The notes: generated from the sequence alone by a model not told the origin. A stretch of 59,236 bases of DNA, filler included, from Sphacelaria rigidula (GCA_964200075.2; 8 parts of 8 records of this genome joined end to end with filler, not necessarily neighbours in it); one strand, 5' to 3'; shown: positions 379-51,000, counted from the whole stretch's first letter. Made by a program: numbers and translations.

Positions 379-2312
379 CGTTCAATGCTGACTAATGACA
401 GCACACAGAGGTCTCTAGTGTAGGGTTCAAAGAGAGACAAAGTCGCCGTCTCTCTCTCCTGGCTTAGAACCGCCACTAATTCCAATCGCCGTTGGAACAA
501 AATTGCCTCTCTTTTTTGTGTTCGCAAGTTTTCAACAATGAAAATAACACATGTTTCAAACCAAGTCTTGGTCGACTCAGAGTTACCTGCCTGGAATTGA
601 TCTGCGGCCATATGCGACGTTCCGATTTCGAACCCGTTCCGAAACGGAGGATTCCTCCCCGATCTCACAAATGTCGTGTTAAATGCTGTGTGCCAACACG
701 TGCTTATCAATCTGTGAGTTCGTGTAGCATCGGCCCGTGCAGAACATATCTGCCTCTACCGCTCTTTGTTCATGAGCGTGATGCAGATCGGAGGATTGCC
801 CTTCCCAATCAGAAGCTTCATTGTTTGATGAAACACAGGGTGCATGGTTTCGAGCACAACTCACAAGAAGGGCACAAAGTGCTGATCCGAGAGGGATTCA
901 CTCGTGGGCACGAGATAGACATAATCGATACGCGAATACCCGGTGAAGGAAAGTCGAGAAAGGTACCCAATTTGAAAGAAGCAAGGGGTATCAGACGAGC
1001 ACATACGAAACTCCTCACGGAACGAGAAACAGAAATCAGGGAGAAAAAAAAAGAAGATGGTAAAAAGCAAACACCGAAATAATTCAGTACTGACCCCGAT
1101 GAAGATGATGCCGATAATTATAGTAGGAGTCGTGAACAGGCCACGTGTAACCCGGTCGCACGACTTCGGGTACGGGGACAGTACAAATGAATGTGTACGG
1201 AAGGAAGCGAAGTCGTTGTCCTATCCCAAACGAATCGACGCTATCAACGTCGTGTCTCGAGACAGACTTATGTGACCAATGACCAGCTCCTGCTTATCGA
1301 ATGTACGTTTCTATCCGGATCCAAGCCCAGATCTGCGCGCACTTTCAACAGTACGGTGGTTCTCGCTGTTGTTTCTGGTCCCACGCGTCAATATTGGTAC
1401 ACAAATCCGCGACAAAGTAAGAAAAACACGTGTACACCTACCACGGGAAAACACACAGACACCCCCTACTCATGACATGTGCATTGGGCTTCAACGCGTG
1501 CCCTTGACGGAAATCCGTTGAGTTAGCAACCCCAGATGTGCTTGTTTTCCGCGCGTGTCTGATGCAAATAATCGTACATACCTGAATCCGAACGGATTCG
1601 ATCGAGGCCACGGACACCTTGCCCCGGTCATAAACAGTAGCATCTCGAGGTATGTCTTTTGTTTGCGGAGGCGACGAGGTTCTCGAACTTACGTCGTGTA
1701 TGGGTTGTGGACTACCCGTTCACGTCTGTGCATTTCACTCGTGCGGTTCCCAACCGTGAAGGCGGATATGGTCGAGGTGGAGGTGACAGGCCAAAGGCAC
1801 AAAGGAGGTGGGGCTTTCGTCTTCCTCGGTCGCGCCATCAACAGCATTGGCGATGTTGCCCCTGAGGTCAACAGTTACACTGGCGAAGCCTGGAAACACT
1901 TTATCAAGTACAGCGGAGCTTTATACGACAATACGTACACTGCCCTGGCCGAAATATTCATTTCTTGGGGGCGTGGCCCTGACGCTCTCGTGATTCGGCG
2001 CGTTGCCGCATCCCACCGCGGACTCCTGCTGAGGGGCGTCAACGAGCACACCTCAGTCCGCAGCGCGCCCGACTACCACATGCTGCCATACGTAGAGATA
2101 CCAGAAGCGTGTGGAGCACGCTAATGCAGGAGGTGCCGTACGGCATCAGGTGGTGACAATGGCGCAACGAGTGCCAACTCATGTACAGAGAGTGTTCGCT
2201 CGCTTGGAACATAATGAGAGCACTCTCACCTCGCCGCAATTGGTTGCGGCAATGAAGAGCGTGCTGGGCATGCGGCGGGCGCCGATAAAATCTGACCCAA
2301 GCGTCCACGCCC

Positions 2313-2993
2313 GTGGCGAAAGCTGCCGCAATGGATTCTCGGGGGGAAAAGTTGTTAGAGCGTGTGGAGCCCATCTTGGCCAATTTGGAGAAGTACTTCA
2401 CGGAAAATCCTAACGAAAAACTAGTATATCCTTCCCCCGATGGTGAGTTCATTCCCGGCCCGGCAGCAGTAATCACTGAGGTTTCGGTGGAGGAGTTTGC
2501 ACCGGAAATTTTTAAGCAAGCCGTGCTTGTCAAGCTGCAGCACCAAACAGATTGGAAGGACGACCCGTACCTGGTGATGAGCACCGTCGTGGCCGAGGCC
2601 AAGGAGTGGCGGAGAATAGAGGTGTCCGGTCAGTCGTCCACCTCTTCGCCGAAATCCTTGCGCAACCATGGCTCGAAATCGGCTGGTCGCGCCGCCAGTA
2701 TGACTTGCCGTCGCTCTGGCCAGGTCGACCACTACGCGCGCGATTGCCCAACGTCTCCCGGTGGAGAGTTTGGGCAGTCTAGTGCCGCGCGCTATCAGCA
2801 TCGTCAGCACAAGGGCAAAATACGAGGTAATCGTGGTGGCGGCGGCGGATCCTCCTGCGATCGAGGGTCGCAGGCGAGCCCTCAGCAGCAGCCGCAGCCG
2901 CAGCCGCAGCAGGATCAGCAACAGCAGGGGCAGCGGCGTCAGCATGGACGTGGCTCTGGGTCCGGCGCCGCAGTAGGTGCTGCTGCTCCGTAA
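2313..2993 (+). pseudogene. Gag fragment of the gypsy element
   Basis: CX2CX4HX4C knuckle with the second Cys changed to Ser, followed by a Gln/Gly-rich tail. The upstream part of gag is frameshifted. Confidence 0.7.
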
Positions 2994-3348
2994 CGGGCGG
3001 TGCAGGCGGGCCCGACCTCTACAGAGTCGAACACTGCGTCGGCGCCGGCGGTGGCGCCGGCGGCGACACCGGCAGCAGCGCCAGGCGCAACGCCTGTTGA
3101 CGCCCTGGTGGGAAGGTCGCCAAATTCTTGGTTTGATGGCTGGGGCGCGTAACCGCCGCCGGTGTCATTTGAACCTGCCGGGGCGTCTTCGCCTGCGCAT
3201 CTTGCGCAGCCGTGGCGTCAAGTGGGATTAGCGGCACATAGGTCAGCGGAAGATCCCGTGGAGCTTGCCGACAGATAAATCCCGACGGAGTTATGTCTTC
3301 CGAATCAACGGCAGCGTGAAGTCATTGTGGTTCGGTCTATGTAGGATT

Positions 3349-4323
3349 CTGGCGCCCATTTGGGGGGCCGCGTGTGTGGGTGAGTGTTACCGCCACGCAT
3401 TTCAAGAATGCGATTTAGGCCCGATTGCGAGAGGTTTTGAGCGTTGATCACCAGTTTGCAGCAGCGTATTCTCCGTGGTCTAACGGTACGTGCGAACGCA
3501 TGGTCAAGGAAGTAGTTCGTGCTCTTCGCTCTATTCTTCTCGAGTAGCGTAGAGCGGTTTCCGAGTGGGTGGACTTGTTGCCGGCGGTGTAATGGGCGCT
3601 CAATACAGCGTATCGTCGTCGTTACGGTAATACGCCGTACCACGTGATGCTTGGTCGTGCCCCTCGGACGTCTTCCTCGGTGCTGGCGTCTTCGTTGGCG
3701 GGGGAATGGAAGTGTGGTGTTCTGGGCGATGTTCAAATTGAGAGTGCATTGCAAGGAGTCTTTGACTTGCGAGAACATTTTCACGTTCAAGTGCAGGAAC
3801 GTGTTACCGCTAAACGTGCGCGTAGACGTGAGGGGTCCTCGCCGGGGCTGGAGCTGCGGAATTTTGAGGTGGGCAACTATGTCTTGTATGCACGCGTGCG
3901 TCGTCCGGGTGTTACGCCCAAGTTGATGGCGACGTGGACTGGTCTATGGAGAGTGGTTGGTGCTCACCACCCGCACGTGTTTGAGATTCAGAGCATTGTT
4001 CCAGGTCGTGTTCAGACCGCCCATGTAGCTCGTTTGCGTTTTTATGCAGACTCGCACAGCTTAATGTTACGGCTGACGTCAAGGACGTGTTCCAGCATGC
4101 TTTCAATCAAGGGCAATTTCAGATGCCCGGTATTGCCCGAGTGGCAGAAGCAGATGATCGTTCGTTGATCGTGTGGTCGACTGGGTTGGTTTCGAAGTTG
4201 AGGAGCGCACGTGGGAGCCTTTGTAAGGCCGTTCCGGAATTTCTGACGAAGGAGTTGCGTACGTTGCGCGTGACGCGTGCCGTTGCTGCTCGCATTCCGA
4301 GTAAGTTTGGTATTCAGTTGTGA
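3349..4323 (+). pseudogene. Integrase pseudogene of the gypsy element
   Basis: DDE-core motif PWSNGTCERM and the downstream GPY/F region, with TAG/TAA stops and frameshifts. Confidence 0.85.
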
Positions 4324-9839: not shown

Positions 9840-10115
9840 CTGTGTGTACAGAGAATGGACACAGATTCATGAGTGGCGGAAGAACGCGGCACGTGCACGG
9901 AATAATCGTCACGCGGGCGCATGGGGCGGACAATGTGGATAGGGTACTCCGTGCGTGCTTTAAGCCGAGCTTTTTTTCAGCGCTCCTCCTACCTCGTATT
10001 CACTAGCAGGCCAACTCTCACCCGTCACCACCTGAACTGTCAGCTAGCTGCACTTCAAATCGAGCTGTTCGGTCCACCATTTAGTGTTTCCGCTGTCAAG
10101 TCAACACGTAGATAC

Positions 10116-10356
10116 CTTTATCGTGTGTTCTTCCACGTCGAGACTCGCCACCAACAAGTTCTCCGGCTTTATATCTCGGTGCGCCACTTTTCGCGAGTGG
10201 CAATATTCCAAGGCTAGCAGCAGCGACCTCACGTACTCCCTGGCATCGCGCTCACTAAAACGTCCAGCCGTCACAATTTTATCGAACAACTCGCCTCCGT
10301 GCACCCACTCCATGACTATGTAGAACATGTCAACCTCCTCGTAAAAATCTAAAAAC
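10116..10356 (-). CDS. CAMK-family Ser/Thr kinase, internal exon (catalytic loop)
   Basis: ccag|..FYIVMEWVHGGELFDKIV..LEYCHSRKVAHRDIKPENLL..TIK|gtatct. Confidence 0.92.
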
Positions 10357-10559
10357 CTGGTGACAGCAGCGCACAGGAAACAGCAGCGCACGGGAAGCAG
10401 TAGCGCACGGGAAGCAGTAGCGCACGGGGAAAGCTGGTTCCTTATCAAGGGTGCACTGTCCCTAGGGGGGTATCCGCATGACCAAAACAAGCAATACAGA
10501 TTATACATCCAAGCAGCTGGGTCTACAAGCTGTTCTCGCGCCTCGAGCACCACGGTGTG

Positions 10560-13500
10560 ACTTGGAATTCCCCCGTAACCCTGCTGCAGAGGTTTCAGAG
10601 GATAAAACGTCTTGATTTTTCTGGCCTACTTTACAACCTGTTGATCTCATCCTTCCTCCCACATCAGGTGATGACAATTGAACCCGGAACGAGTCGGGAA
10701 TGGCCTTGTCTATCATTTCAATGGCGAGTATGTCTGCCCGGAACTTTCAAACCGCCGCCAGTCACGGTCGCGAAGGCATAAAACCGTCGAGCAGGCTGCT
10801 TGACGATTTGCGCCGAGAGAGCGATCACTGGCTGCAAACCGAACCGGTCTGTCAACACGGCGTGGTGCTTATTGAGTTCACGGCGAGAATTGTGAAACGC
10901 CTATTGTGGTGTTTTACGAGCTGCGATCAGGCCGACTATCCTCCGCCCCCGACCGACCGCCATCCGACCGGGGATCGTTTTGTCAGGGAAACCAAATCCA
11001 ACCCGCGGAGAAAGGACACAACGACACGCGCTGAGGAGCCTGTGTACTATGTCAGCGGTGGTGCAACAAGCAAACTGGCCGGTGAGCTGGGTCGACGTTG
11101 TTGAGCTCTGAGTTCGAAATTCAGCTGTGGAGTTTTATTCAGAGTTTGGAAATGTCACCGTCGCACTCCAATCATCCAACTCGTCGGACTCAGATCACAA
11201 CATCGCGTGGATCACGTGCGACACCTTCGTCGACTCGCACGAAACAGACACCAGTAAACCCCTATCGGGTTCAAATCCGTAGATATGCTAGTAACAACTC
11301 CTTCCACCAACATTTGTGAGCAACGTATACAGCTTATCGTCAGGAAGTCCAAGCAGAGCAAACTCAGGGATCAAGTCTGCAAACGGGCGGCGAATTTCGC
11401 CGACAGACTCCGGAGATCCGCCGAAATAATAAATGCCATGTCCGACCCCACAGCCCCGTGTACACGGGTGGTTCGAGGATGCTAGAACCGGAGTTCTGAA
11501 ACATCTGGGGTAGGCGGGAGAGGGCGAACTTGGTGATATAACTATGGCCGAGAGATAGCTCCGCATGGCGCACGTTACGAGCAGCGTGCCGGAGATTCAA
11601 AGAGGTAATCCAAAACCGGGTTGAACAAGTACCTGGATGTATATGCGAAGGAACTGGACGAGTGACTTGGAATTGGGGACATGAGAGGCTGGTACAGGCA
11701 TTCGAAATAAGGATGGAGGTAAGCGGGGGGGAAACCGGAGAACGAGCAGAACACTAAGAGTCGGGAGGAGAAATGCTACGGCAGAGGGGTCCATTCCGTG
11801 AGAAATGGAAACGATATCTTTCCACTTTGCTGAATATGTCATTGGCAACTGTCGATCCAACCGTCATCGGGAGCATCATGCCACCACAGAAAGTTGTCCC
11901 TTGTTGACCTACCGATCCTGGAGAAGGTAGAAGAGGCACCGAGAGCTATGGCTAACCGCAAATCGATGGGACCAGATGGCCCATCGGCTGAGTTGTCCGA
12001 GCTTGGACTCGTCAGGCAGCCCTCGAACCTCCTGCGCCACTTCCATAGCATCATCGTTGCTGCTTGAACGTCCGCCGAGGTGCTGGAAGAGCGGAACGGT
12101 ACCGCTATCAAAGTGCTGCACAAGAAGGATTGGACCGACTCTGGTAACTCTGTATGGATCTCTCTCGCGGCGTACACTGGAAAAGTTATCCTGCAAAGCG
12201 TACCTAAAAGGCTTGGCCCTTTCTGCGAGGAGGAAGGAATTTCTCGGGGACATAGTGCGGATTCCGCCGCCAACGATCAACCATCGACATGATGTCCGTA
12301 GTATGCTCACTGCAAACGTTGAGACTCGAGGGCATTATCCCATGAACATGTGATTCATCGACCTGCAGAACGTGCACAGCTTCGAAGATCGCACGCTCTT
12401 GTGGGAAGTACTAGCTTGGCCCGGAGTCCAGCCGCGGACGACCAAGGTCATCCGTACGTTCCACGATGGCGTGTAAGCTCGGATAACGAACTACCAGGAT
12501 CTTCCCACTTCTGCCAGAAACTCAGGCAAGGACGCATTTCGTCCCCGTTACTGTTCAACATCTTCGACGCATGATGAAATCGATGTGGTTATACAGCATT
12601 TCACGGCGGACCCGGTCGTCGTGTGAGACGTGACATGTCCAGATTATTGGCAACAAGCAAGGATGAGAACCCTGGACAAGAATCACCGCTGGAGATTGGG
12701 CGGCGCGCGGTGTGGGGAATACCGTCCGCGGAAGAAGCGGTCATAGCCTCGAGGTCCCCAGAAGGGCTTACTAGGGTGATAGCCGTGATAGTGGTATCTT
12801 GTCAGGAGTTTAGATCAACAACTTCAGGAAACAAGGCAGACTCCATGCACTTGCTGTCAATCCCCATCTCCCCAGCGACAGCACTGCACATCAAGGTCGG
12901 ACGCCGAAGGTACGAGCAGACGATCGAGTTTGTCTGCCTTGGTGCTGTCAGTTCGGGGGCGAATAATGCCATCGAAATCCAACGCCGAATCAGCGCCGCG
13001 TGGGCACGCCTCCGAAAGAACAGCTCCCCGCTTTATGATCGCCTCAATGCCTGACTCCATCTCAAAATCCGGCTGCTCACAGCGGAGGTGGTGGAAGCTA
13101 TGCTTTACAGATGCACGTGGACGCTGCACTCAAACGAATTTGAAACTCTGCGAACTGCCCACCACATGCTTTTACCGTAAGCAGTCGGCTTCGATAGGTA
13201 TAGTCGCGGGGGACACGAGAGTATTTCTCACAAAAGTGTGCTCCAGACCATCCGCGAGTCGCCAATTCGGTTCGCGGGGACCCTTGTACGGCAAGGTGGT
13301 ACACGCCTCTAGAAGCGCACCATGTTCGGACGGTTGGCCACACAAGAAGCCTGGCGGGCCTCCCAAACACTGGGGGAACCGCCTGCAAGAGAAGCTGCGT
13401 GCCTTAGGCGCTATCTCACGAAAGAGAGGACCGAAGAAATCGTCTGCCTACGGGTTGGAGGTCAAAGACGCACCAGATTCGGTCGCTGCCGCTGAGAACG

Positions 13501-23200: not shown

Positions 23201-23387
23201 GTCGCCCAGATCAGGCACTTCATGCAGCCTGAACCCAAACATCAGGCGCTGTATGGCCACTCTCTTCGTGGCGCTTTTGGAATAAAGCATGATTAGTTGC
23301 TCAGATGCGCAAGACGTCGTAACATTATCCGAACTTGTGAATTGGCTTTGCCACGCAACCGAGACTTGATATCATCATCAACATGAA

Positions 23388-31919: not shown

Positions 31920-33020
31920 GATAGATTTCAGCTGGGATACTTGCCGTGCGTTATCGTGTTCGTTGTCGTGTTCGTTGTTGTTGTTATTGCTGCTGATCGT
32001 GGTGGTGGTGGTGGTGGTGTTGTGCCTTCTCCGCACAGCGTACAGTGTTGGAATATACAGACAACACAGTGTCGCCGTGCTTGACTTGAATTTCCAAAGG
32101 GGCACCTGGTAAAAATGCGAACATCCAACGAGGCAATACAGTCAGAATCACGGAGAATCACACCTGCCACCCGATTGGCCCACTCAGCTGCCCGTCTCAC
32201 GAGGAACAGCGCAATGTTGGACAAAACACCAGCAGTGTCTGCCTCGACCGCCCTCATGTTCCGCTGGGTTTGACATTTGCATAGCGTCTCAGACCCGTAA
32301 TGGAAATAAATAATTTCTCATCGTAATGGAATCGGTAATCGTTGTGTATTATCTTCTTGCTCTTGAAAATTCAAAGAAATTGTCAACATTAGCATGAATC
32401 CCAAGATAATCATTACATCAGATGAACTGCGGACAACAAGAAGAAAATGAGCAGGAAACATGGGGGATCAGTGAAAGTGCGACAATCAATCACATCAACC
32501 TTGCATCTTGATTGCATCAATCAATATGACAGGGATCGATGGAAGAGGACTCCAATAGATAAGAAATGGAAAATGACTCAAAGATCAAGTCAAAGCCCTT
32601 CACACTGCTTCACCTGGCTTCGCTTCCAGCGGCTCTCACCGGACACCGCCGGGGCGCGCTAGAGGCTGCAGGCCGTGGTAGCGGGTGAAGAAACGAACCC
32701 GAGTCGATTCGTATCCTGTTTCTACCTTTACAAGATTTAAAAATATAATAAGCCAGTCAGGGTCGACGGAATCCACAGAACGCACCACTTGGCTCAGCTT
32801 GTAGCGGTCCGCAAGCGGCTTCCCAGACCAACACACGGCGCTACCGGCCGGCGCAAAGCACAGTACCATCCTACATTCAAGCATTCATTGATCTTCTCTA
32901 GCTGCATCCATAAGAGAAGCGGTGGCTTCGTCATCGGAGCCAAGCTCAACCATCTACAGCACAACAGTACCTTGACGGCACAGCAGTATCGCACAGAGTG
33001 AACTAGGAACCCATCCGATC

Positions 33021-34412
33021 ATGTCGAGGCACCGAGGTGTGCGGAATCGTCAATTCAGCTACGACGAGGGCGAGGACGACTATTACGACGAGGATGAAGA
33101 GGCGGATGCAGCTTGTGAGGAGTACCGACAGAGTGTCTTGCAGGCTAGGGGTGACGGCAGCGGTAGCGGTAGCGGCGTGTCTCTCTCGTCTTACTTCGAC
33201 GTTGCTGACACCTCGTCGAAGCTAAACAAACACCAGCAGCAAAGAGTAGGAACAGGTGGTGGCGGCGGGGGCTACGGCGCTTCGTTATATGCAGGAGACA
33301 ACACAGATGGGGGTGCGGGTAGTGCGGGTGTGGACCCAGAAGACGCCGAGCTGGTGGAAGCCATTGCCGGGGAATTGGAGAAGCGGCTGGGAAAGGGCCG
33401 CTTCTCGCCGCGGCGGGTCCGACAGGCTGTCGTGGACGGCGAATACGACGTGGACACGGCCGAAGTTATCCTTTTGACCCTCGATCAAGCGCCGTCTGCC
33501 AGCGGTGTGTCCGGCGCCGATGTTGCCAATCAAAACAATGGCGTTAGCAACAATGAGCCTGCGCTACCACCGGGGCTAGGTTATGGTGGTGCTGATGTTA
33601 CCGTGGGCGGAACCTCTTCGCCGTCGTCGCTGGCCTTTGGACTCAAAGTTGATGGCCGAGGCGATTGGAAGCGCGTCGGATGTGGTGACGACAGAGGTAC
33701 ATGTAGCGGCGGCGACGGCGGCGGCGCAGGAAATGGTAGCACTGCTACCGATGGTCAGACAGCAACAGTGCCAGCTCTACCACCAGGATTCGGCGGCGCT
33801 ACAGTACCGGCTGCAACAGACGGTGGCGACGGCGGTTTGGCGCCTTTCGGGTTTGACACCCCGTCCCCGGATGACATAAATCTGTACAGGCAATCCAACG
33901 CCGGAAGGATGCCCACTTGGGGAATCGGGGGTGGAATAGCCACTCCAACTCAATTCAGCGGTGGCGTTGGGGGAGGGGAAAGGGGAACGGGGATCAAGGG
34001 AAATGGTGCAAAAAAAGCGACAGTCACAGCTATCTCAAGCCCCAATGCCAAAGTTGGGGCCAGTGGAAGCGGCCGAACAAAAGCGACCGTTACAGTTGTC
34101 TCGAGCCCTAAGGCCAAGGTCGTACATATTGGCACCGGTTCCACACCGACCACCGCCCCACGAAAATCCGTGTTGTCGCCTACCAGGGGAGGATCTACAC
34201 CCACGCCCACGCGCGGCAGCATCGTGAGCGCCCAAGAGCTATCGCCCACTAGGCCGAAGCTCAATGCGTCCACGACACCTCAGACTGCAGCGCACGCCGC
34301 CGCTGCAGAGGGTGCGGACGAGAGTGACGACGGGGAGCCAGTGGGCAAGGAGCGGCTGGCCATGGTAGTAATAGGGCACGTGGATGCTGGAAAGAGCACA
34401 TTAATGGGTCAG
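33021..34412 (+). CDS. HBS1: HBS1-like translational GTPase, exon 1
   Basis: Typical MSRHRxVR..YD acidic N-terminus, a helical N-domain and the G1 motif VVIGHVDAGKSTLMGQ|gtgtgt. Confidence 0.92.
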
Positions 34413-34659
34413 GTGTGTGTTTGTGTAGGAGGGGGGGCGCGCGGGGGTGTGACCACTGAGAGTACGCCGACGCTGGAGGCAGAAAATAACAGGCGCTCGC
34501 TTGTGTTCCGGGTGCGTCAAGAGAGACACAAAACACGTTCAGGCAACGTATAGACGATGCCATGGAAGAAGTGGCGAAATATATTAGATATAGGGAAAGC
34601 GTACTCTCGTGCCTCTTCTTCTCTGGTGACATGCTCGATGTTTTGTTTTGTATACCCAT

Positions 34660-35200: not shown

Positions 35201-35662
35201 GCTTGGAGTATGCTCATATGGGAAATGACGCTTGCGATCAGCGATCCACCCTAGCAGCGTACGACCTCACGAAGCCCCAGCATCACCAACCTCCCCTCTC
35301 GCGACTGACTGCCTTTGCCTGAGTCTGAGATGTATATCCTCTCGTGGGTGATGCATGGGTATAGCAGACAGTTGAATTGTATGCTGTATGTTGTTCTCTC
35401 GGCTCTGTTGGTGCCATGTGCTGCTACCGCTGTTCTTCTGCTAAAGCGGCGTGAAGTTCATCATCGTTGATGACATCATGGCGTGACAAGTACAGAAAGT
35501 CCAGTGTGCTGGATGGTAGTCAAGCGATAATACAGTCAGTGGTGTACAAGTGTATTCAGGCAATACATGCATGAGCAGCCGGGTTTTGTTCGGTTGCAAG
35601 GTGTCCAAAATAAGGACAACCAGAGGTAGGGGAGGGTGTGTCGGAATGGTCGATGGCCACAG

Positions 35663-35817
35663 TACATCACACACCTGGACAAAAGAATATACTGTCAAAA
35701 ATGTACTGCGTACAGTATCGAAATACATTGTCTAATGTAACAAACAATATATTTCATTCTGTACGTAGTATATTTTCTGACAATGTAATATATCGTCATT
35801 ATCCAGGGTGTGCAGTA
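35663..35817. mobile_element. Small MITE, possibly Tc1/mariner-type (TA flanks)
   Basis: Left ta-catcacacacctggacaa and right ttatccagggtgtgcag-ta are imperfect inverted repeats. The same terminus occurs at 37576-37592. Confidence 0.55.
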
Positions 35818-36302
35818 CACGTGTGTGGGAGTGCGCCGCTATTGTTCTGATCTCTGTATGGGTTGGTTGGTTGGGGCCATGCTTGTTGCTGCAACACTCG
35901 ATTATGTTTGGTGGCTTGCTGCTGTTTGGTCCATGTTGTACAGATGTTGATTTGATGTGCGCTGTGTTTCTGGACTCTTGGCACATATATAGAGATATAT
36001 GCATTTTCATGGAAAGTATTTTACTTGATGAATAGGAGTGGTTCGATTCAAATTGCATACAACCTTGAAGATCCATCAGACAAAATAACGTGTTCTGATT
36101 GGCGGCTTGTTCAGGAGTCGTATCACAGTAGCCATGCCAACAGTATTAACTGGAGAAAATAAAACAATGTTCGACCCCAACTAAAAATAACCCGCTGAAC
36201 GTGTGCTACCGTCGATTTCCCGGCGCTCATGCTTAATTTCCCCTGGGCCTCTGCTCTCGGCTGCTTGCGCTGTTTACTACTGGGTATGATATGGTGTTTC
36301 AG

Positions 36303-36398
36303 GTGTTGGTGCAACTGGGGCAAGTATCCCAGCGGATTTTACACAAGCAGGAGAAGGAGGCAAGGGAGGCGGGCAAGGCTAGCTTTTTCTTGGCATGG
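36303..36398 (+). CDS. HBS1: HBS1-like GTPase, exon 2
   Basis: tttcag|VLVQLGQVSQRILHKQEKEAREAGKASFFLAW|gtaag, in phase with exon 1. Confidence 0.92.
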
Positions 36399-37214
36399 GT
36401 AAGACGCGTTGAATACCTTGAATAACGTTGAATATCACCCTCACATGTCAATATCACCACCCTCCCCCCCTCCGGGCAATCAGTTCTCTGCTATTTTCGA
36501 CCCCATGTCATTATCCACAGTGCTATATCCGGGCAGGTTCTGTGCCACTCACCCCCTCTACAAGACCGTCGAGAGATGAACTTCTATACCCGAAAATGCA
36601 TCACCTTGGGGGTGATGTACTGCGTTATACGGAAAGGGAGTAAGTACGTTGTTGTGGGTCATGATCTAGAAAAGAGTATAATCCCGCGAGGCGCGATGAG
36701 AGAGGAAACAAGACGTCCTTTTTTTTCTCAAAAATTGCGAAGGGGCACGATAGCCACTCAAGAAGGTAACACCGTTGTAGTTTTCACTGCTGCTGTAAAG
36801 AGATTATATTTTCGAGATTTTTCTAGTGGAAAAACGGGTTATGCTTTGGCAGGTGCGAGTGGGGTGGGGCCTTGCCATCTTTACGGAAAATCGAGGCTGA
36901 GTTTCGGAACGCCCCTCTCCTTCACTCATCGCCCCCCCCCCCCCACCCCTCCCACTCCCCTCCCCCGCCTTCTCCCTCCCTCCCCCTNNNNNNNNNNNNN
37001 NNNNNNNNNNNNNNNNNNNNNNNNNNNNNNNTTAATTAATTAANNNNNNNNNNNNNNNNNNNNNNNNNNNNNNNNNNNNNNNNNNNNAGCCTGAACCCGA
37101 ACATGAGGCGCTGTATGGCCATTTTTTTCGCGACACTTTCAGCTGGTTTTTGTGGGGGGGCTATCGTAGAAGGTGTCGTATTGTGACCGTCGGTTCCCTC
37201 ATGTATAGTCTACC

Positions 37215-37592
37215 CAATATATATTAGACGCATTGACGCACGACATATTGGGGCGGCAATATATATTGGCGCTTCGGGTGTCGAGTATATTGAATCGTCA
37301 ATATATATTGACCTCGGGTGGCAGCAAATATATTACTCGATGAATATATATTGGTACCTTCTCGCACCAACATATTACTCGGCCGATATACATTGAGGTG
37401 GCGCGTGTCGTGATGTATTGCTCGGTTGATATATATTGCATGTCGCGAGCCTTGATATATTGATGGCACAATATATATATTGACCCTCTCTCGTGTCATC
37501 ATATTGCTCGCCCAATATATATTGACCACCCGATGCCTCGATATATTGAGTGGGCAATATATATTACATATTGTATTGTCCAGGGTGTGGAG
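37215..37592. repeat. ~42-bp-period array of palindromic CAATATATATTG cores with unique spacers, ending in a MITE-type terminus
   Basis: Nine cores at 42-44 bp spacing, each followed by a variable ~17-nt GC-rich spacer, then ATATTR and a ~6-nt variable spacer. Confidence 0.85.
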
Positions 37593-37689
37593 TGCTTCCA
37601 ACTACGGTCAACGTTGACACAGGTGCTGAGCCTGTCTAGTTTCACTGATCATGGTGCGATTGACATCTGAGATTCTTGACCAGGATTAT

Positions 37690-38700
37690 TTTCATTGTTC
37701 AGTCTCCCATGCTTTTGCTTTTGTCGATAAAGTACCGGTGACGCTCGTTGTGTTTAGGCACTTCGTTCCGATATCAGCGAGTTGCTCCTTCTTGGATACG
37801 TCGTAGATCATGATCTGCCCTCCATCACCATTTCGCGGATGTAGAAGAAACGTTAGGCTACGTGCTTCGTGCGAGCGCTGAAATTCCGGGCGTTAATGAT
37901 ATTGAGCGTAGCCGTACCATCGATGCGCAGCAGCACTCAGACAAAATTCGCCTCAAACCCCAAATCCGTCGTCATATTCAAGCATAACACCGTCTCCTTT
38001 ATCGCCTCTGCCGCAGCCCACATCCCGGCTTCTATCACCGCCATGACCGCGAGACTCTGCAGTTCCGACTTGAAGCTGACTGGGGCCTTCGCCATCATTA
38101 CTACGCACAATGGCATCGACTTGCCATTGCCGAGATTGTTGCCTGGTTTGGAGTCTGAAAGCACTGTAAGGTCGAACATTCAGTCGTAGGGGGTGACTTG
38201 AGTAAGGTTTATCACTGAGCCAGTGATGGCCTGTTTGCACTGCTTGACACCCACCGCATTGAGAAGTTTATTTTCCGGTTGTTGCGGTGATGGCTCCGCG
38301 CCGAACCCGGGTGTACCCAGGGGATTGCCGGTCCACTATCCGAACCTCTCCAGCGCAGGTTTCGTGCCCCCCGATGGTCGGTGTGCTCTTCTCGCGGTCC
38401 CGCGTGACCCGCATGCCGAGAACACATGATATTTCCATGTCGGTCGTCCTGAACCGGCTCATCGACTTCTTCTTGACAGCCTCGAGAACCGGAATGTTTC
38501 CTCCGAGTGAACGATCGTCGTCAACGTGGAGCGTAAGTATGATGGCCGTGTCGCTGTTCTTGTATATGTAGATGCATGTGTCAGGGTGAAGAGACACGAA
38601 AAAAAAAATCCCCATCTCCCTTTCGAGCCTCTAAATCTTCATCACTTGATCTGCCGGCTCGTTGTTCAGAGCATTACAATAGAAGCTAATCAAAGGTATA
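37690..38700 (-). mobile_element. Old Ty1/copia RT/RNase H remnant
   Basis: CIYIY..IILTLHVDD, VLGMRVTRDRE, GNN..NGKS...MAKAPVSFKS.LQS, FYIREMV, ADIGTKCL. Heavily frameshifted. Confidence 0.85.
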
Positions 38701-41787: not shown

Positions 41788-44148
41788 TCACAAAATACTC
41801 ATGAAATAATTACGATGAAATTCAAAGACCTCTGTGGGCAACACCTTTGTCAAGAAATCAGCATGTTGATCTTCCGATCTTACGTGGATAATGGAAATCT
41901 CCTTCCTCGATACTACTTTCCTGATAAAGTGATATCTAACATCGATATGCTTGGAGTTCGAGTTGGTTATGGGATTCTGTGCTAGTTGAATGGCTCCCTG
42001 ATTATCCTCGAACAACGGAATACACGGTACTCCAACCCGAGGCAACATAAATTGCCATACCTGTCTGAGAAACATTACCTCCTTCAACACGTCAGTCATG
42101 ACTCCGTATTCTGCCTCCGATGTATATAGCGTTTCGCATTTTTGTGTTCTGGAGAACAAAGAAACACATCCGCCACCACACATGATCAGCCCCCCAGATA
42201 CCGAACGCCTGTCCGCTGCTTTGCTGGCGTAATCAGCATCAGCAAACGCCTGAAGGCTCATTCCCTGCAAACTTCCTCTACGGTTGGTAATCCCAAGTGT
42301 ACTGGTCCGTTTCACATATCCCAAAATAGCAATCGCTGCACGTCAATGTAGGATTCTGGGACACGCACAATGCCTTGCTACTGCTCGTACTGCATTAGAT
42401 ATGTCTGGTCGTGTTTGAGTGGCCAGCCACATGAGTGATCCCACCAGTTCTCTGAAAGATAGTTTCATTTGCTCTTCGTCGTCTCTGAACTCTTCAAGCT
42501 TCACACCGGGCCCCATCGGGATATTGTTACCTTCCTCAACATTGAATGTCAGTGCCAACTCTTCTGCAAACGTTTGTTGTGATATACTCAGCGTCCCACT
42601 CTCCAAATCCCTCTCGTAATATAGTCCCGAGTACCATCGCAATTCCCCCAGATTCTTGATCGGTATCATTTTGTTCAGGTCCTCACCAAGTCTGCCACAC
42701 CTTTCCACACTTCCTACTGCAAAGATATCATCTACATGTACCACCAACATAATAGATACTTTTCCCTCTTCCATTAGACGAAAAACGCATGGATCTGCCA
42801 AACATTGCGCGAATCCAAGATTGTTCAACTTTGCTCCAAAGTGATTGTACCATTGCCTGGACGCTTTTTTGAGACCATAAAGACTCTTGTTTAATTTCAC
42901 GATCTTCCCAGACAGTATCCCACAACCTGGGGGCAGTCGAATGAAAACGCTTTCCTCCAACTCCGATGGCACAAAAGCTTGTTCCACATCAAAATGACGC
43001 AAAGATAGGTCCTGCTCACACGCCAAGGCAGCTAACAAACGAACACTTGAAATTGCCACAGTTGGCGCATACAATTCACCGAAATCTATATCTGCTCTTT
43101 GCATGTCACCCCTTGCAACCAATCTTGATTTCGCTTTGGTAGCCCATCCAAACTCGCCAGCCTTCCAAGTGTACACCCATTTCGCGTTAATATAGTTGTG
43201 GACTGATTGCTACTCGGCTGAATCAACAGTCCCCGCGTCTACAATACCCTGAAACTCTCGAGCCATTGAGTCGACCCACCCACCCCCATATTCCGGCTGC
43301 AGAGCTTCAGCGTACGTCGTAGGTATCTTCAAGTCCTTCACTGGAATCTGCGGGATGTTCGGTGTCGTGCGCGGCGCATGCTCTTCCTTCATGACGTCCC
43401 TGATGTCTTCTCGCGTTGCCAGCTTTGTTGCGTCTTGGAACGGGATGCCCTTCTGCCCCCCTGCAATGCAGTCCTGTTTCCTTCCAACCTCTACCGCACT
43501 GCGCGTAAGATGGGCAGACAGCAATCATTGCTTGTCTAGTAGTGATAATAGGCCCAAGTCTTGATTGATGAGTGATGTTGACGGAGTCCTTTCAGATATA
43601 TGTTGTGCTGTGGCCGAGCGTGTCCTCCCTGGCTGTCGTGGATCTGTTTCCAGATCAAGTTCCCTGACAACTCTCGGCGGGATCGGTGAAAACGAGAAAT
43701 CTTGAACATGGGTTGTTGATGGTGGTGGAGATGTTGTTGCCGATGATATTGGTGACGGTGCTTGTGAATTATTAAATAGTGGCGGTGATGCCGGTGGCCT
43801 ATGCGGGTGTTGTGGTGGAGTTGAATCGGTATGCGATTGCTGTTGTGTGGGCGGTCGTGGAGGTGAATAAGTGGGTGATGTAAACGTAGGTCGTGGTCGT
43901 GTGTGGCGCGGTTGTTGGGCGATGATTTTTAGAGGTGTAAATTGCGGGAAGGTCGGAGCGGGAATGGTATGTCTGGACTTTGACATAGTCGAATGAAAAG
44001 GTGAAGGTCTCGGCATGGTCGGAACGGGAATGCGGTATCTGGGTTTGGGAATGGTCGGATGAAAAGGGGTAGGTCTCGGCATGGTCGGAACGGGAATGCG
44101 GTGTCTGGGTTTGGGAATGGTCGGATGAAAAGGTGTAGGTCTCGGCAT
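41788..44148 (-). pseudogene. Copia pol, one reading frame broken by three nonsense codons
   Basis: ORFs 43525-44148, 43210-43524, 42343-43176 and 41788-42324 are all in the same frame, separated by TGA, TAG and TGA. Confidence 0.9.
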
Positions 44149-44230: not shown

Positions 44231-46261
44231 GAATGTGCAGTGTCGGCGGTGGTTGTAGGTGGTAGCCACGGAGATGCGGCAGCGGGGAAAGGTTGCGGTA
44301 GTGTTGGTGCGGCGGCGGCGTCGGCGGCGGAATGATTGCTTCCCCCCCCCCCCCCCCCCGCCGGCGCCGCCGGCGGAAAAAAAGGGGGGCCAGGGAAAGT
44401 CCACNNNNNNNNNNNNNNNNNNNNNNNNNNNNNNNNNNNNNNNNNNNNTTAATTAATTAANNNNNNNNNNNNNNNNNNNNNNNNNNNNNNNNNNNNNNNN
44501 NNNNTATTCACGCAACTTTTGCGCCATTCCACGTGTCTGGACTGCGTGTACCTGGGTTGCAACGCCGGAACAAAGCCTGGAGTGATTCGTCACGAGTCGA
44601 CTCGTCATACTAAAACCAAGTAATTTACAGACGAATCATTATTCGTCCGACCCTTCGTGCTTTTGCAAACACCCATAACGCTCTCGAATTCGAAAGACGC
44701 GGGCTCTCGAAATGAAGAAACTGTCCCAAGATCGTTCATAGCAAAAGGTGTGGGTAGATTCTTATTTCCCCCCATATAGGTGGATACACTTTTGGGGGGA
44801 ATATTCCGCCGATTCCCGAAAAGGCCCCTGCGTGCAAACACCATGATCTTCCCTGGTGTTGAGCGTTTGCTAGCAAAATTATTTTTTGTTCATCATGGTT
44901 CTAAAGACGGACCAACTGTCATGGGAGCCGTTCAAAATAAGATTAACGACCAATTTTGACCGCTGTGCAGGCCAACTCATCTGAGACCCTTTTTTACGGC
45001 TCGTATTTTGTGGGTGTGGTCCTTTCCACTTTTGAGACATCTGACACGACTTTTGCCCCCCCCAAATAGGAAATATAGCCACCATACGTTTTGGACACCT
45101 TGCATCACCCCACCGAGATAATTTCAGCCCACTTTTCCGATTCGCTTCGCTCCGAGGTTTCGAGAACGACCTCTGGACAAAGAGACGGCTGGAAAAAAAA
45201 GAAGCGGCATATGCAGGTATTTTCACGGCAAAGTGTTCAAGTCGTGTGATGACGATATTCTCAGGAAGCCAACAGTCGTGGCAAAGGTCCCTACAGTCAG
45301 GAAGACACCACCAAAGAGCAATGCAGTGGTGGGGATTGCACTTTTTGTTCCTGGTTCTCTTTTTTGTAGGAGGAATTGTATGGGGCTTACGGTGCAACCC
45401 AAATCTATGGGGACCGGACTCCGGGAAACAGGCGGTGCCGAGGTTAGCTCTCCACGTTGTTGCAGGGTGAGGAAATTTCTCGGAATTAATGATTCCGAAT
45501 AACTCTAACCCTAGTCCTCACCCTCACCCCGACGAAGGCATGCCGAGAACCCCAGACAAGGGGGGTGAAAGACGTTTCCCAGGCAAAGTTGTGCGTTTCC
45601 AGCCCTCAAATCAGCGCCTGCGGCGCCGAACAAGACAAAAACGCGTTCCGCGTATGCGAGGAGCGCAGCCCCGATCAAATTTCGGATTTTGGTGTGCACA
45701 CTTAAACCAAGTCGGAAAAACTTCACCCTACCAAGCGGTGAACTCTACCGGCGATGCCATACGAACATGTATCCTTTGTTGTACCGCTAAATACGATTTT
45801 GGATTATAGTCCTTGATTTGAAATCACGGACACGCAAACAGTGTTCATCTCAACACATGTTTGTTCTGGAGCAGGTTGCTTTGGCTTGTTAGGATGGGCC
45901 CTTGCAGTATAATGTATGAGGCGGTGGTGCACGCAGAGAAACAAATCGCTGTGAATTACATGCTGTTTGTGACGAGTACCACCACCTAAAAGTTGGCGCT
46001 TCCTAGATTTGACCTATTTCGACCACTCGAATTGAAGTGAAAATGCACATGGGTACAGGCTGAGCCACAACCTGTATGCTCATATTTCTCCACCACACGA
46101 GTAGTTTTTCGTCCCAAGAATTAATCCGATGTACAAGTATCGTTGTGAAGTGCAGATCAACCTGCCGATGCATGCTCTGCCGTAAATGAATGGACAAAAC
46201 CGTGTTGCACAATGTAGTAACTCAGCGACGGAACCAGACTCTGTCGGGTAAAGGAAGGATA

Positions 46262-46328: not shown

Positions 46329-46464
46329 TAACGGTATCACACAAAGAATGGAATGCATGACGCAATCTGATGAGTTTTGCGCTGAAATTCACGCGTACGC
46401 TCTACGTCAGTACGCAAAAACGTATTGCCTTACCCAATATATATATAGAGAGAGATGTGCGTGT

Positions 46465-48084: not shown

Positions 48085-51000
48085 GTGAGTTTAGGTGTAA
48101 AGAAGGTAAAAGCCTAGGTGCGGGGAGCGGATGCAGGAGGGTGGGGAGAGAAGACGTTGCGTAGTCACCAATTGATGGAGTCAAGGATGGAGATGATTTT
48201 GTGCTACCATAAACAGTTTTGATGCTTTATCGCTCACCGTGCTGTTTTTTTTTGGCAACGTCCTCCTCGAAATAACGAGGCGCGGTGGATTTAACATACA
48301 CCGCAACTTCGGTGGAACCTTCGGTGATACTCTGTTGCGGTAGAACATTCGCATAGTTCCGTAATGCAAGACACCTGGATGCGATCACATCGCTGTACCG
48401 CGGCGGCGAAAAATCTAATGTGTCGGTTGTACCAACATGATGATTCCACCATGAGGACTCGTGCTGAGCGAGCGCAGCGACTGGGAGCACAGACAGCATA
48501 CACTCTATCCGCAGGATCCGCAGGAGTTGTCAAAGTAAGAGATGGCCTGTGTCGCAGTCATGCTGGGTACCAAATCAACTTGTCAACCTCAGTGTCGATT
48601 ACCCATCGATCACAAACGTTAGATTGCCTGGTCCCTTCGAAATGGAGATCTGTGTGTAATAGGTGTACACAGAGCGCCTGAATGATGACTGCGTGTTGCG
48701 TTTTACGGTTTGGGTCGTCATGCAGAAAGTGAGGTGGGAACGATCAGCTTGGGCAGCCATGAAACTGATGTTTAACCCTTGGTCACGAGCCTCGTCTCGG
48801 AACAGGTTTGGGGCAACAATCCCCGTGGATCAATCCTTTGAGTGTCAGGTTGAGTTATCCAGACCCTGGGCAAAAGATTACAGGGTCAAAAAGTGTGCTG
48901 CGAACGGTATCGACTATTGCGCCTATTGCAATCGATCCCATACTGTACGCAGTAAACTTTTGAACGATTTAATCAGTTTTCAAGGGTGTGGAGTTATCTG
49001 GTATTAGTCATTTATCAAGTGAAACTGGAGCAATATCAATGATTATCCACACTGGCGTTCAGTGGTTGAAAAGGGCGATGTACCCTGTTGAGACGCGGAG
49101 GCGGGTCATGTTCGAAGACTCGTGGAACCGTGGAACTTCGGGCACACCTCCGGAGGAAATTACGCACCAATGAAATTAATGGACGCAGTAAAGACTTCCC
49201 CTCAGCGTACCGGAGACTGCACTGCAGAAATGCAGACCAGCTTGCTTGCTTGGAACGTGCATCAGAAGGGAGCCTTTGGCGCAGCTTTTGCAGCCTTTCC
49301 CCGCCTTTCTTGCTGAGGGGTTGCAAACAGTAGGACACTACAATCGTAAATAGATGTAGGAGCTGAGGGGCATTTCTCATTTAATTTGTTTTCGATCGAA
49401 AAAGTGCGGTGGAAGACGAAAATTCTGATTTGATATATCGTCATTTCAACATTAATGACATGGATATGAGTGATTGAATTTTTCTTCTTACCTATAGTTT
49501 CATGACTACAGCATGCAAAATAGTGAGCCCCCCCCCCCTGTGTGACTGTGTGCGCGCGCGTGTCTATTCATGTTGCATAAAGCAAATGTTGTTGTCCTCC
49601 GTTGTTCATGTCCCTTGAATAATGTCCATCATCTAAACTGGAGTACAACGTTGATGGTCTGTATGTATGTCTGCTTGCCTGAACTTGAATGACCTGGACA
49701 TGAGTGACCATAATTTCTCTTCTCTGCGCGCTTTTTCGATCGAAAGCAAGTTTGGTAGGGCACGGCCTGAGTGTGGAAAGCAATGTCAGGCTGACTGTAC
49801 ACCGTTATGTGATCGCTGACAGAGTATAGATGAACCGCGGTGACTGTACTGACTTTGCTAGAAGGAAAACATTCTTGAGTAGTGCACCACCAAAACATGC
49901 TCAAGGTGCGCCAAGCACTCCTTGGAAAGATATCGCAATTGTATCAACGCAGTTAGAGCGTCAATGTTTTCTTATACGAGTACGGTAATTGTAGCTGAGC
50001 GTACTTCACTAGTTCCCAATGAACATTATACTCATTAAACGAAAACATATTAAGCGTAAAATATGGCCTCGGAAAAGAGACAGGCGTGCTGTCGTACCCT
50101 CGTGTTTTCGACTCCACGCCCAAATATCCCTCCGTCCATCCTCCGATTGGGCGTGTTGGTGCCACGGTGATTCTAGCACAAGAAAATCAGTACTCTGATG
50201 TGCCGGTTCGAGCTCCATCGCAGCAAAAAGAGTTGACTCTACAGTGAGTGAACACGGCCGTTACGCTTGTTCATTACGCCGCGTTTTTTTTAAAACAAAA
50301 TTCGCCCAAGATTTGGAACTTGGAATCCTTACTCCGCGAGGGTAGGTAATCTGGCCAGGCGATCATTTGTCGAATGGAATTTATGCTGATTCAACAGATG
50401 TCCTACGCCCGCGGTCAAAGAGTTAGCTCCATTGGCCACATCCTCCCCATCGGATAAACTGACATCAACGCTCCTTGTACCCGTCTTGTGATCAGATACC
50501 CCGTGATTTTCGAAGTGCATGCCGCCCATTGGTGTGGTAGCACTACATTTGCGTTAATTTTATGTGATGATTAATCCACCAGGATTTTGTCACTTCTCTT
50601 ACACCCCTCTACACCCCTTCCGCGCTTCCTTCCTGTTTTGGATATTTGATTGATTGGCAGTGATAAAATACCTCCATTTGATAAATGGATGTTTTCTTCG
50701 TTGTCAGGAATCCCCTTCCCCCCAAACCTCAGAATTGCTGCTCCACGAAATACACACTCCATGTTGAAGCAGGTTGTGGTCTCGTATCAGTCATCATCCA
50801 TGAGTCGTTTTTTTTTGTTTGGTGTTCGTTCCCCTTGTAGCGTGCATACTATCTTGTTCTCGTTTTCCCTGTTTGTCTCCTTCGTTTTGTTTTGTGTCTC
50901 TTCAGTTTTAATCTGTCTGCTTATTCAATATTTCTATCTTCACCCGTTTTCGAGTTCCCTATAGCGACTGTCCTTGGTTCTGTGTGTCCTGGGTACAGCT

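Follow-up and report, generated by a model that had tools for sequence, protein, structure and literature searches.

The window, by which we mean the whole analysed stretch of 59,236 nucleotides, carries at 37215-37566 on the plus strand a row of nine AT-rich palindromic cores (CAATATATATTG or close variants) that stand 42-44 bp apart. The row sits in a patch of nested mobile-element debris. Pieces of a copia-type reverse transcriptase are found at 42346-43209 within 41791-43209 on the minus strand (RVT_2, E = 2.8e-42), and 38271-38630, also on the minus strand, resembles a reverse transcriptase by eye and has no Pfam match. Among the genes of the window there is a long exon of an HBS1-like GTPase at 32976-34550 on the plus strand, ending where the GTP-binding domain begins; its best named match is from Sphacelaria rigidula (84% identity), followed by other Phaeophyceae, and the host is thus a brown alga. 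Another exon, at 10104-10625 on the minus strand, comes from a protein kinase. The only open frame over the array, 125 aa long (37227-37601, minus strand) and without a Pfam match, is a by-product of the stop-free repeat, and none of the 140 open frames of at least 95 aa in the window matches a DNA-transposase family in Pfam. The features on which the analysis is built are the following, with the strand where one applies:

37178-37589, plus strand: right-end fragment of the element that carries the array, cut on its left at 37177/37178 and with its true end at 37589, as placed by contig depth
37215, 37257, 37299, 37342, 37384, 37427, 37469, 37513 and 37555, plus strand: starts of the nine cores, read from the sequence
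37172-37183, plus strand: remnant of a tenth core, of which the right half GTATTG belongs to the element and the left half has been replaced at the junction with another repeat
37576-37589, minus strand: terminal inverted-repeat tip, reading CACACCCTGGACAA inward, shared with the small elements below and placed by the depth boundary
37590-37597: eight flanking bases, GAGTGCTT, which would be one copy of a target duplication, judging from the small elements
37088-37177: piece of a second repeat that abuts and truncates the array element, as seen in contig depth
36989-37087: assembly gap, a run of N with a central TTAATTAATTAA linker, which hides the sequence to the left of 37088
35660-35820, body 35668-35812: small inverted-repeat element 1, with the target duplication CAGTACAT at 35660-35667 and CAGTACAC at 35813-35820
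48852-48998, body 48860-48990: small inverted-repeat element 2, with the target duplication GAGTTATC at 48852-48859 and 48991-48998

A gap of the same make, a run of N around the TTAATTAATTAA linker, lies at 44405-44504; both are 100-base gaps, and the sequences that flank either gap are maybe not contiguous in the genome.

The spacings from core to core are, in order, 42, 42, 43, 42, 43, 42, 44 and 42 bp. The perfect 12-mer CAATATATATTG accounts for three of the cores, and a 14-bp form of the palindrome, lengthened by one AT, for a fourth; of the other five, three deviate from the 12-mer at one position and two at two positions. With at most one mismatch allowed, the 12-mer has seven sites in the whole window, six of them inside the array, against an expectation of 0.09, and none of 100 shuffles reached seven; positions and counts thus confirm the nine cores at 42-44 bp that the preliminary description had reported. 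All eight full units have the order core, spacer of 18-19 nt, half-site and spacer of 6 nt, and the half-site reads ATATTG in five units, ATATTA in two and GTATTG in one. In the unit as it was drawn before, the ATATTR followed by 6 nt holds, with the one GTATTG unit as an exception, and the long spacer had been set too short at about 17 nt. ATATTG is the right half of the core, and the unit is best read as a putative composite site of 24 bp, ATATTG-N6-CAATATATATTG, made up of three half-sites of which two form the palindrome, followed by 18-19 arbitrary nucleotides. The array is the sole half-site cluster of the window, with 18 half-sites per 400 bp and at most 3 elsewhere. The half-preserved tenth core at 37172-37183 means that the array once extended further left.

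Motifs and spacers differ sharply in how well they are kept. Over the eight full units the mean pairwise identity is 0.884 for the cores (shuffle mean 0.354) and 0.887 for the half-sites (shuffle mean 0.393), and in neither case did any of 2000 shuffles reach the value. The long spacers, which had been called unrelated by eye, are indeed close to chance: left anchoring gives 0.275 (p 0.17) and right anchoring 0.299 (p 0.02), where the shuffles average 0.256. The earlier claim that the spacers have diverged has to be qualified for the short ones of 6 nt, which keep a slight likeness (0.357 against a shuffle mean of 0.267, p 0.0055); four of the eight start with CTCG. The spacers have a G+C content of 61% and the motifs of 16%. 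Tandem Repeats Finder did not call the array, even at score 30, which fits with units that are mostly unlike one another. We also considered palindromes that extend past the cores and rejected them, the flanks of each core matching at 0-3 of 6 positions by eye, and larger inverted repeats over the array proved to be core-seeded matches between different units.

The tip CACACCCTGGACAA occurs at both ends of both small elements with 0-2 differences, and a tip of 14 nt is in this way common to five ends. The shared terminus had already been seen at the first of the small elements, and we can add the second one as well as the target duplications. These are 8 bp long and agree at 8 of 8 positions in element 2 (GAGTTATC) and at 7 of 8 in element 1 (CAGTACAT and CAGTACAC), and since each element has an 8-mer of its own, these are duplications of the target that lie outside the element sequence. 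The small elements are foldbacks of 131-145 bp with CACAC..GTGTG tips and a mutual homology of about 55 nt per arm. The array element resembles them out to about 14-22 nt from the tip and is unrelated beyond. Hence it belongs to a non-autonomous family distinct from theirs, and both would rely on the same or a related transposase.

The stretch 37088-37900 (813 bases, including the second repeat at 37088-37177) was matched by contigs of public sequencing runs at a likeness of at least 80%. Four runs were placed in total, among them three DNA-like runs of which two, X1 and X4, come from one study and the third, X3, from another, and the fourth, X6, may be RNA; the best-matching run may be the window's own sample. 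The number of contigs fitting the stretch is 6327, 5522 and 3950 in the three DNA runs, and those of X1 are spread over a wide range of likeness, with 340 at 99% or more, 1470 at 95-99%, 3145 at 90-95% and 1372 below 90%. The summed depth in X1 is 80,000-240,000 over the array against 61 for a contig of 1173 bases that covers the unique flank 37565-37900 without differences, in X3 it is 43,000-113,000 against 32.5 on the unique flank, and in X4 9,300-36,000 against 7-10. Summed contig depth is a rough proxy and not a copy number, but the ratio of array to unique flank, about 1300-4000, is similar across the three runs, and the family amounts to roughly 1300-4000 genome equivalents, to be read as an order of magnitude. 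The second repeat is even more abundant: its summed depth in X1 is 0.8-1.4 million, compared to 61 for single-copy sequence, which exceeds that of the array family. The flanks behind 37177 are diverse in other copies of the second repeat (29 contigs in X3, agreement 0.37), and a partial copy of it, unrelated to the array, is found at 23226-23277 (85% over 52 nt).

The very many copies of the array element end at the same base. In X1 the depth is high up to 37591 and at most 618 from 37592 onward, contigs have loose ends behind 37589 (83, 81 and 64 contigs in the three DNA runs) and behind 37591 (35, 42 and 29), and the sequence past these points agrees merely to 0.40-0.42 between contigs, which is what many different flanks would give. 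The sharp drop in depth and the diverse flanks are together the signature of a transposon end, located at ...CCAGGGTGTG (37589). On the other side, loose ends before 37178 were seen in 35, 26 and 29 contigs with an agreement of about 0.7, and the array goes on leftward in these copies; their consensus finishes in a half-site followed by six letters and by the left half-core. The preliminary description had taken the array for the subterminal region of a DNA transposon, and the many copies, their common end base and the order of their spacers, to which we come below, speak in favour of this. The flank consensus behind 37589 opens with the same AT-only palindrome of eight letters, AAATATTT, in all three DNA runs. 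It is a hint only: insertion may favour palindromic 8-bp targets, or some of the copies may be nested in one larger repeat; the overall agreement of the flanks is 0.41, and the three 8-mers in the window are unlike AAATATTT.

Contigs from other copies are colinear with the array over 210-356 bp at about 82-98% identity. One of 363 bases spans 37178-37533 with 52 differences and 11 gaps, another one spans 37257-37525 with 44 differences and 3 gaps, and contigs over 37451-37576 have 3-6 differences. Nearly none fits two places of the stretch (2, 1, 0 and 0 contigs in the four runs), so that each contig recognises its own unit, and the spacers are thus conserved between copies and their order is identical, with neither acquisition nor shuffling.

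Within the eight full units, 19 differences are found among those listed (40 of 114), and the count of motif and spacer changes is therefore partial. For ten of the 19, nearly all other copies agree against the window copy (93-100% of depth in each of the three DNA runs), and these changes are hence private to it. Six of these private changes are in motifs and four in spacers, a split close to what neutral decay would give over 146 motif and 194 spacer positions. At five of the six private motif changes (37226, 37385, 37391, 37415 and 37427) the family keeps the motif letter, which means that the consensus cores of the family are better than those of the window copy. The window copy, left-truncated and with mutated cores, is dead. 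The remaining nine listed differences are polymorphic among copies (3-94% of depth), and every one of them falls in a spacer (Fisher p = 0.011). Among the listed differences, those propagated by transposing lineages have thus avoided the motifs. The earlier argument that motifs and spacers have decayed unevenly is accordingly right for the family and wrong for the window copy, where cores decay like spacers, and as far as the listed, partial set of differences goes, selection has acted on the motifs in the active lineage of the family and not at the window locus. This avoidance, partial as the set of listed differences is, is the best evidence here that the motifs may matter for transposition.

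Slippage within a transposon could instead have produced a minisatellite without function that hitch-hikes with the element, the AT cores persisting as self-regenerating (AT)n runs. The number of units does vary between copies, single contigs skipping 42 bases (one unit), 210 bases (five units) or other lengths; in roughly one quarter to one third of the depth the seventh core is without its extra AT and thus 2 bp short. Both observations count in favour of slippage. A neutral minisatellite should decay evenly, however, and here the identity between units is 88% for the motifs and at chance level for the long spacers; the preliminary description would have dropped its reading had the spacers been as alike as the cores, which they are not. 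Slippage of (AT)n runs also leaves aside that parts which are not microsatellite are kept too, namely the C..G at the edges of the palindrome and the ATATTG half-site that stands apart from it, that the lengths of the spacers are fixed, and that none of the nine listed differences among copies falls in a motif position. We find this explanation very unlikely. Even harder to believe is that the locus makes or stores small RNAs, in the manner of a CRISPR or a piRNA locus, or works through a structured RNA or DNA fold, although the repeat-spacer appearance invites the thought and the array as single-stranded DNA folds better than its shuffles (z = -3.05). The same spacers stand in the same order across copies and none has been acquired, the fold is undefined (centroid -2.7 kcal/mol, frequency of the minimum-energy structure 0), nine palindromes that can pair with one another account for such a z-score, and no Rfam family reaches its threshold in 35400-38200. 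The small-RNA array had been ranked as the less likely reading from the start, and that ranking stands. A CRISPR, or any other repeat-spacer locus that acquires spacers, had not been called either and is ruled out by the fixed spacers, the eukaryotic host and the lack of cas-like frames in the window.

Other sequence collections gave little that resembles the array. In a viral contig collection, no contig had the two-core pattern and none had the tip with a half-site. The pattern half-site, core, half-site was found in 18 metagenome contigs with one match each, of which 17 are AT-rich (GC 0.26-0.38) and one, L003, has a GC of 0.47; the transposon tip is in none of the 18, and the matches are taken as chance. 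Four AT-rich metagenome contigs (L004, L008, L010 and L015) have exact copies of the CAATATATATTG core, two or three of them at distances of 35 and 113 bp, and no tip, and probably represent an unrelated bacterial or phage repeat. The tip of 18 nt occurs in 11 prokaryote contigs, about as many as a rough estimate of chance gives, and none of them has cores nearby.

Judging from its tip, the array element would fall in the class that makes 8-bp target duplications; the figure is taken from the tip-sharing small elements, the left end of the array copy being missing. Duplications of this length are made by hAT, KDZ/Zisupton, P and Merlin elements. In our opinion the array is likely to be the subterminal repeat region of one end of a high-copy and probably non-autonomous cut-and-paste transposon, most likely hAT-like, and its sites to be docking sites for the transposase. 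High copy number, a defined end and no coding capacity, as expected of MITEs and other non-autonomous class II elements, are all found here, in a copy that is truncated. Subterminal regions with many motif copies are also a feature of CACTA (En/Spm) elements, where a 12-bp motif occurs many times over a few hundred bases and is bound by the element-encoded TNPA. The array is alike in having many subterminal motif copies as putative protein sites. This superfamily was rejected because its members duplicate 3 bp of the target and begin with CACTA, whereas here the duplications are 8 bp long and the tip is CACAC.

Among the classes with 8-bp duplications we favour hAT over KDZ, which is a real alternative, for the letters at the tip and for inverted repeats that are short. 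The 8-bp duplication of hAT elements is seen at the two small tip-sharing elements, with the left end of the array copy missing, and the short terminal inverted repeats of hAT (about 10-25 bp) have their counterpart in the tip of 14 nt and the likeness out to about 22 nt. The terminal letters of hAT elements typically follow the pattern YARNG. The tip CACAC departs from that pattern, yet it equals the curated tip letters of hAT-2_Ec32 (Repbase hAT-2_ESi), an autonomous hAT element of Ectocarpus with CACAC-GTGTG termini, inverted repeats of 21 bp and an 8-bp target duplication that was assumed by the curators (PMC12477816). Among the Ectocarpus rows listed there, the pair CACAC-GTGTG is given for hAT-2_Ec32 only (PMC12477816). 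The two have in common a brown-algal host, the CACAC-GTGTG termini, of which the five terminal letters were compared, and short inverted repeats. They differ in that hAT is low-copy in Ectocarpus, with 4 families and 128 copies (PMC12477816), and the array family has about a thousand copies or more, and the curated row of hAT-2_Ec32 does not mention an array (PMC12477816). The three 8-mers in the window do not fit the target pattern nTnnnnAn given for Hermes (PMC10368747). What also counts against the hAT-like reading is that a hAT transposase, with BED finger, DDE core and hAT dimerisation domain, is not among the 140 open frames of the window.

The same anatomy and the same role could be housed in KDZ (Kyakuja-Dileera-Zisupton) or in another class with 8-bp duplications (P, Merlin or Novosib). 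KDZ-1 to KDZ-5, KDZ-N1 and the "possible KDZ" DNA8-N1 of Ectocarpus all have 8-bp duplications, several Ectocarpus KDZ elements have "complex termini featuring tandem repeats", which the curators used as a mark for classification, and KDZ has 6403 copies in that genome compared to the 128 of hAT (PMC12477816). Both marks are seen here too, the duplication in the small elements and the tandemly repeated terminus in the array itself, and by description KDZ-3, -4, -5 and -N1 come close to the array family in duplication, tandem-repeat termini and high copy number. By description they also differ, being giant elements of 2-30 kb, and the KDZ termini listed for Ectocarpus start with GGGG/GGGT or CAGTA and none with CACAC (PMC12477816), although Ectocarpus belongs to another brown-algal order. 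The 140 open frames of at least 95 aa in the window include no KDZ transposase. All in all we regard KDZ or another of these classes as rather unlikely, and as the most serious competitor of the hAT-like reading.

For a hAT-like element, a function for the array is not difficult to imagine. Transposons of the hAT superfamily need 100-200 bp beyond their terminal repeats (PMC10368747). The Hermes transposase is an octamer, in which the N-terminal BED zinc fingers of several protomers bind short subterminal repeats near the tip (PMC10368747), and Kat1 also depends on subterminal repeats (PMC4763223). In Hermes, Ac, Tol2 and Tag1, short motifs in the first 100-450 bp are needed for excision in addition to the terminal repeats, and Hermes resembles the present case further in that one pair of its BED-bound subterminal repeats forms a quasi-palindrome and in its 8-bp target duplication (PMC10368747). 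By analogy, the ATATTG half-sites would be putative recognition sites for the DNA-binding domain of the family's transposase (a BED zinc finger, if it is a hAT), with a dimer on the palindromic core and a third domain on the half-site upstream. The period of 42-44 bp is about four turns of 10.5 bp and would place all sites on one face of the DNA. The protomers of an oligomeric transposase could then load cooperatively, side by side, and keep the tip close by in place in the active site, ready for cleavage. Copying would favour the elements whose sites are intact, and motif and spacing could in this way survive while the spacers of 18-19 nt drift to randomness. Non-autonomous copies with good arrays may compete well for the transposase, which could have given them their high copy number. 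We infer from the anatomy, the pattern of conservation and what is known of hAT ends that a protein binds here, which protein this is, and to which superfamily the element belongs.

As a kind, such an element is already well known, namely a non-autonomous cut-and-paste transposon with subterminal binding-site repeats, the sites being putative here. What sets it apart is only that a composite palindromic site recurs with a strict period of four turns. In characterised hAT elements the motifs are of 4-6 bp with irregular spacing and orientation (PMC10368747), whereas here composites of 24 bp follow one another in one orientation at a strict 42-44 bp. The core string is in no paper of the literature searched, and the literature on brown-algal DNA transposons, subterminal repeats, hAT and MITEs yielded no description of the family; a brown-algal genome preprint mentions, in the passages matched by a term search, only masking with REPET/RepeatMasker and no family descriptions. 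We call the family undescribed on the strength of these literature searches, and the curated library of Ectocarpus already contains brown-algal elements with the same five tip letters (hAT-2_Ec32) and others with tandem-repeat termini (KDZ).

One could go further and propose that this is an undescribed brown-algal family whose ends carry a strictly in-phase row of at least ten composite sites, one per four helical turns, in a way not seen in characterised hAT elements. We find this doubtful, though not to the degree of the minisatellite. If it were true, the protein assembling on the sites, a transposase or one of the host, would form a long oligomer that stays in register on a single face of the DNA, and the copies, about a thousand or more, would mean that roughly ten thousand sites or more are scattered over the genome, a network on which regulation or the organisation of chromatin may have come to draw. 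Even a superfamily yet to be defined is conceivable for the element.

The likely explanation of the repeat-spacer pattern as transposon anatomy takes away the need to chase a CRISPR-like locus in a eukaryote. It would also single out a DNA-transposon family that ranks among the most abundant of a brown-algal order with poor annotation, and gives the exact end of the family together with a candidate recognition site for its transposase; this aids the annotation of repeats and may point the way to an active transposon of brown algae for use as a genetic tool. For the study of how transposases read long ends, the four-turn phasing is a modest oddity.

Outside the array, a lone GTATTG half-site followed by 7 nt and a core-like run, CAATATATATAT, lies at 46423-46449 beside a (GA)n stretch, and may be a tiny remnant of the array-bearing family or a product of chance.
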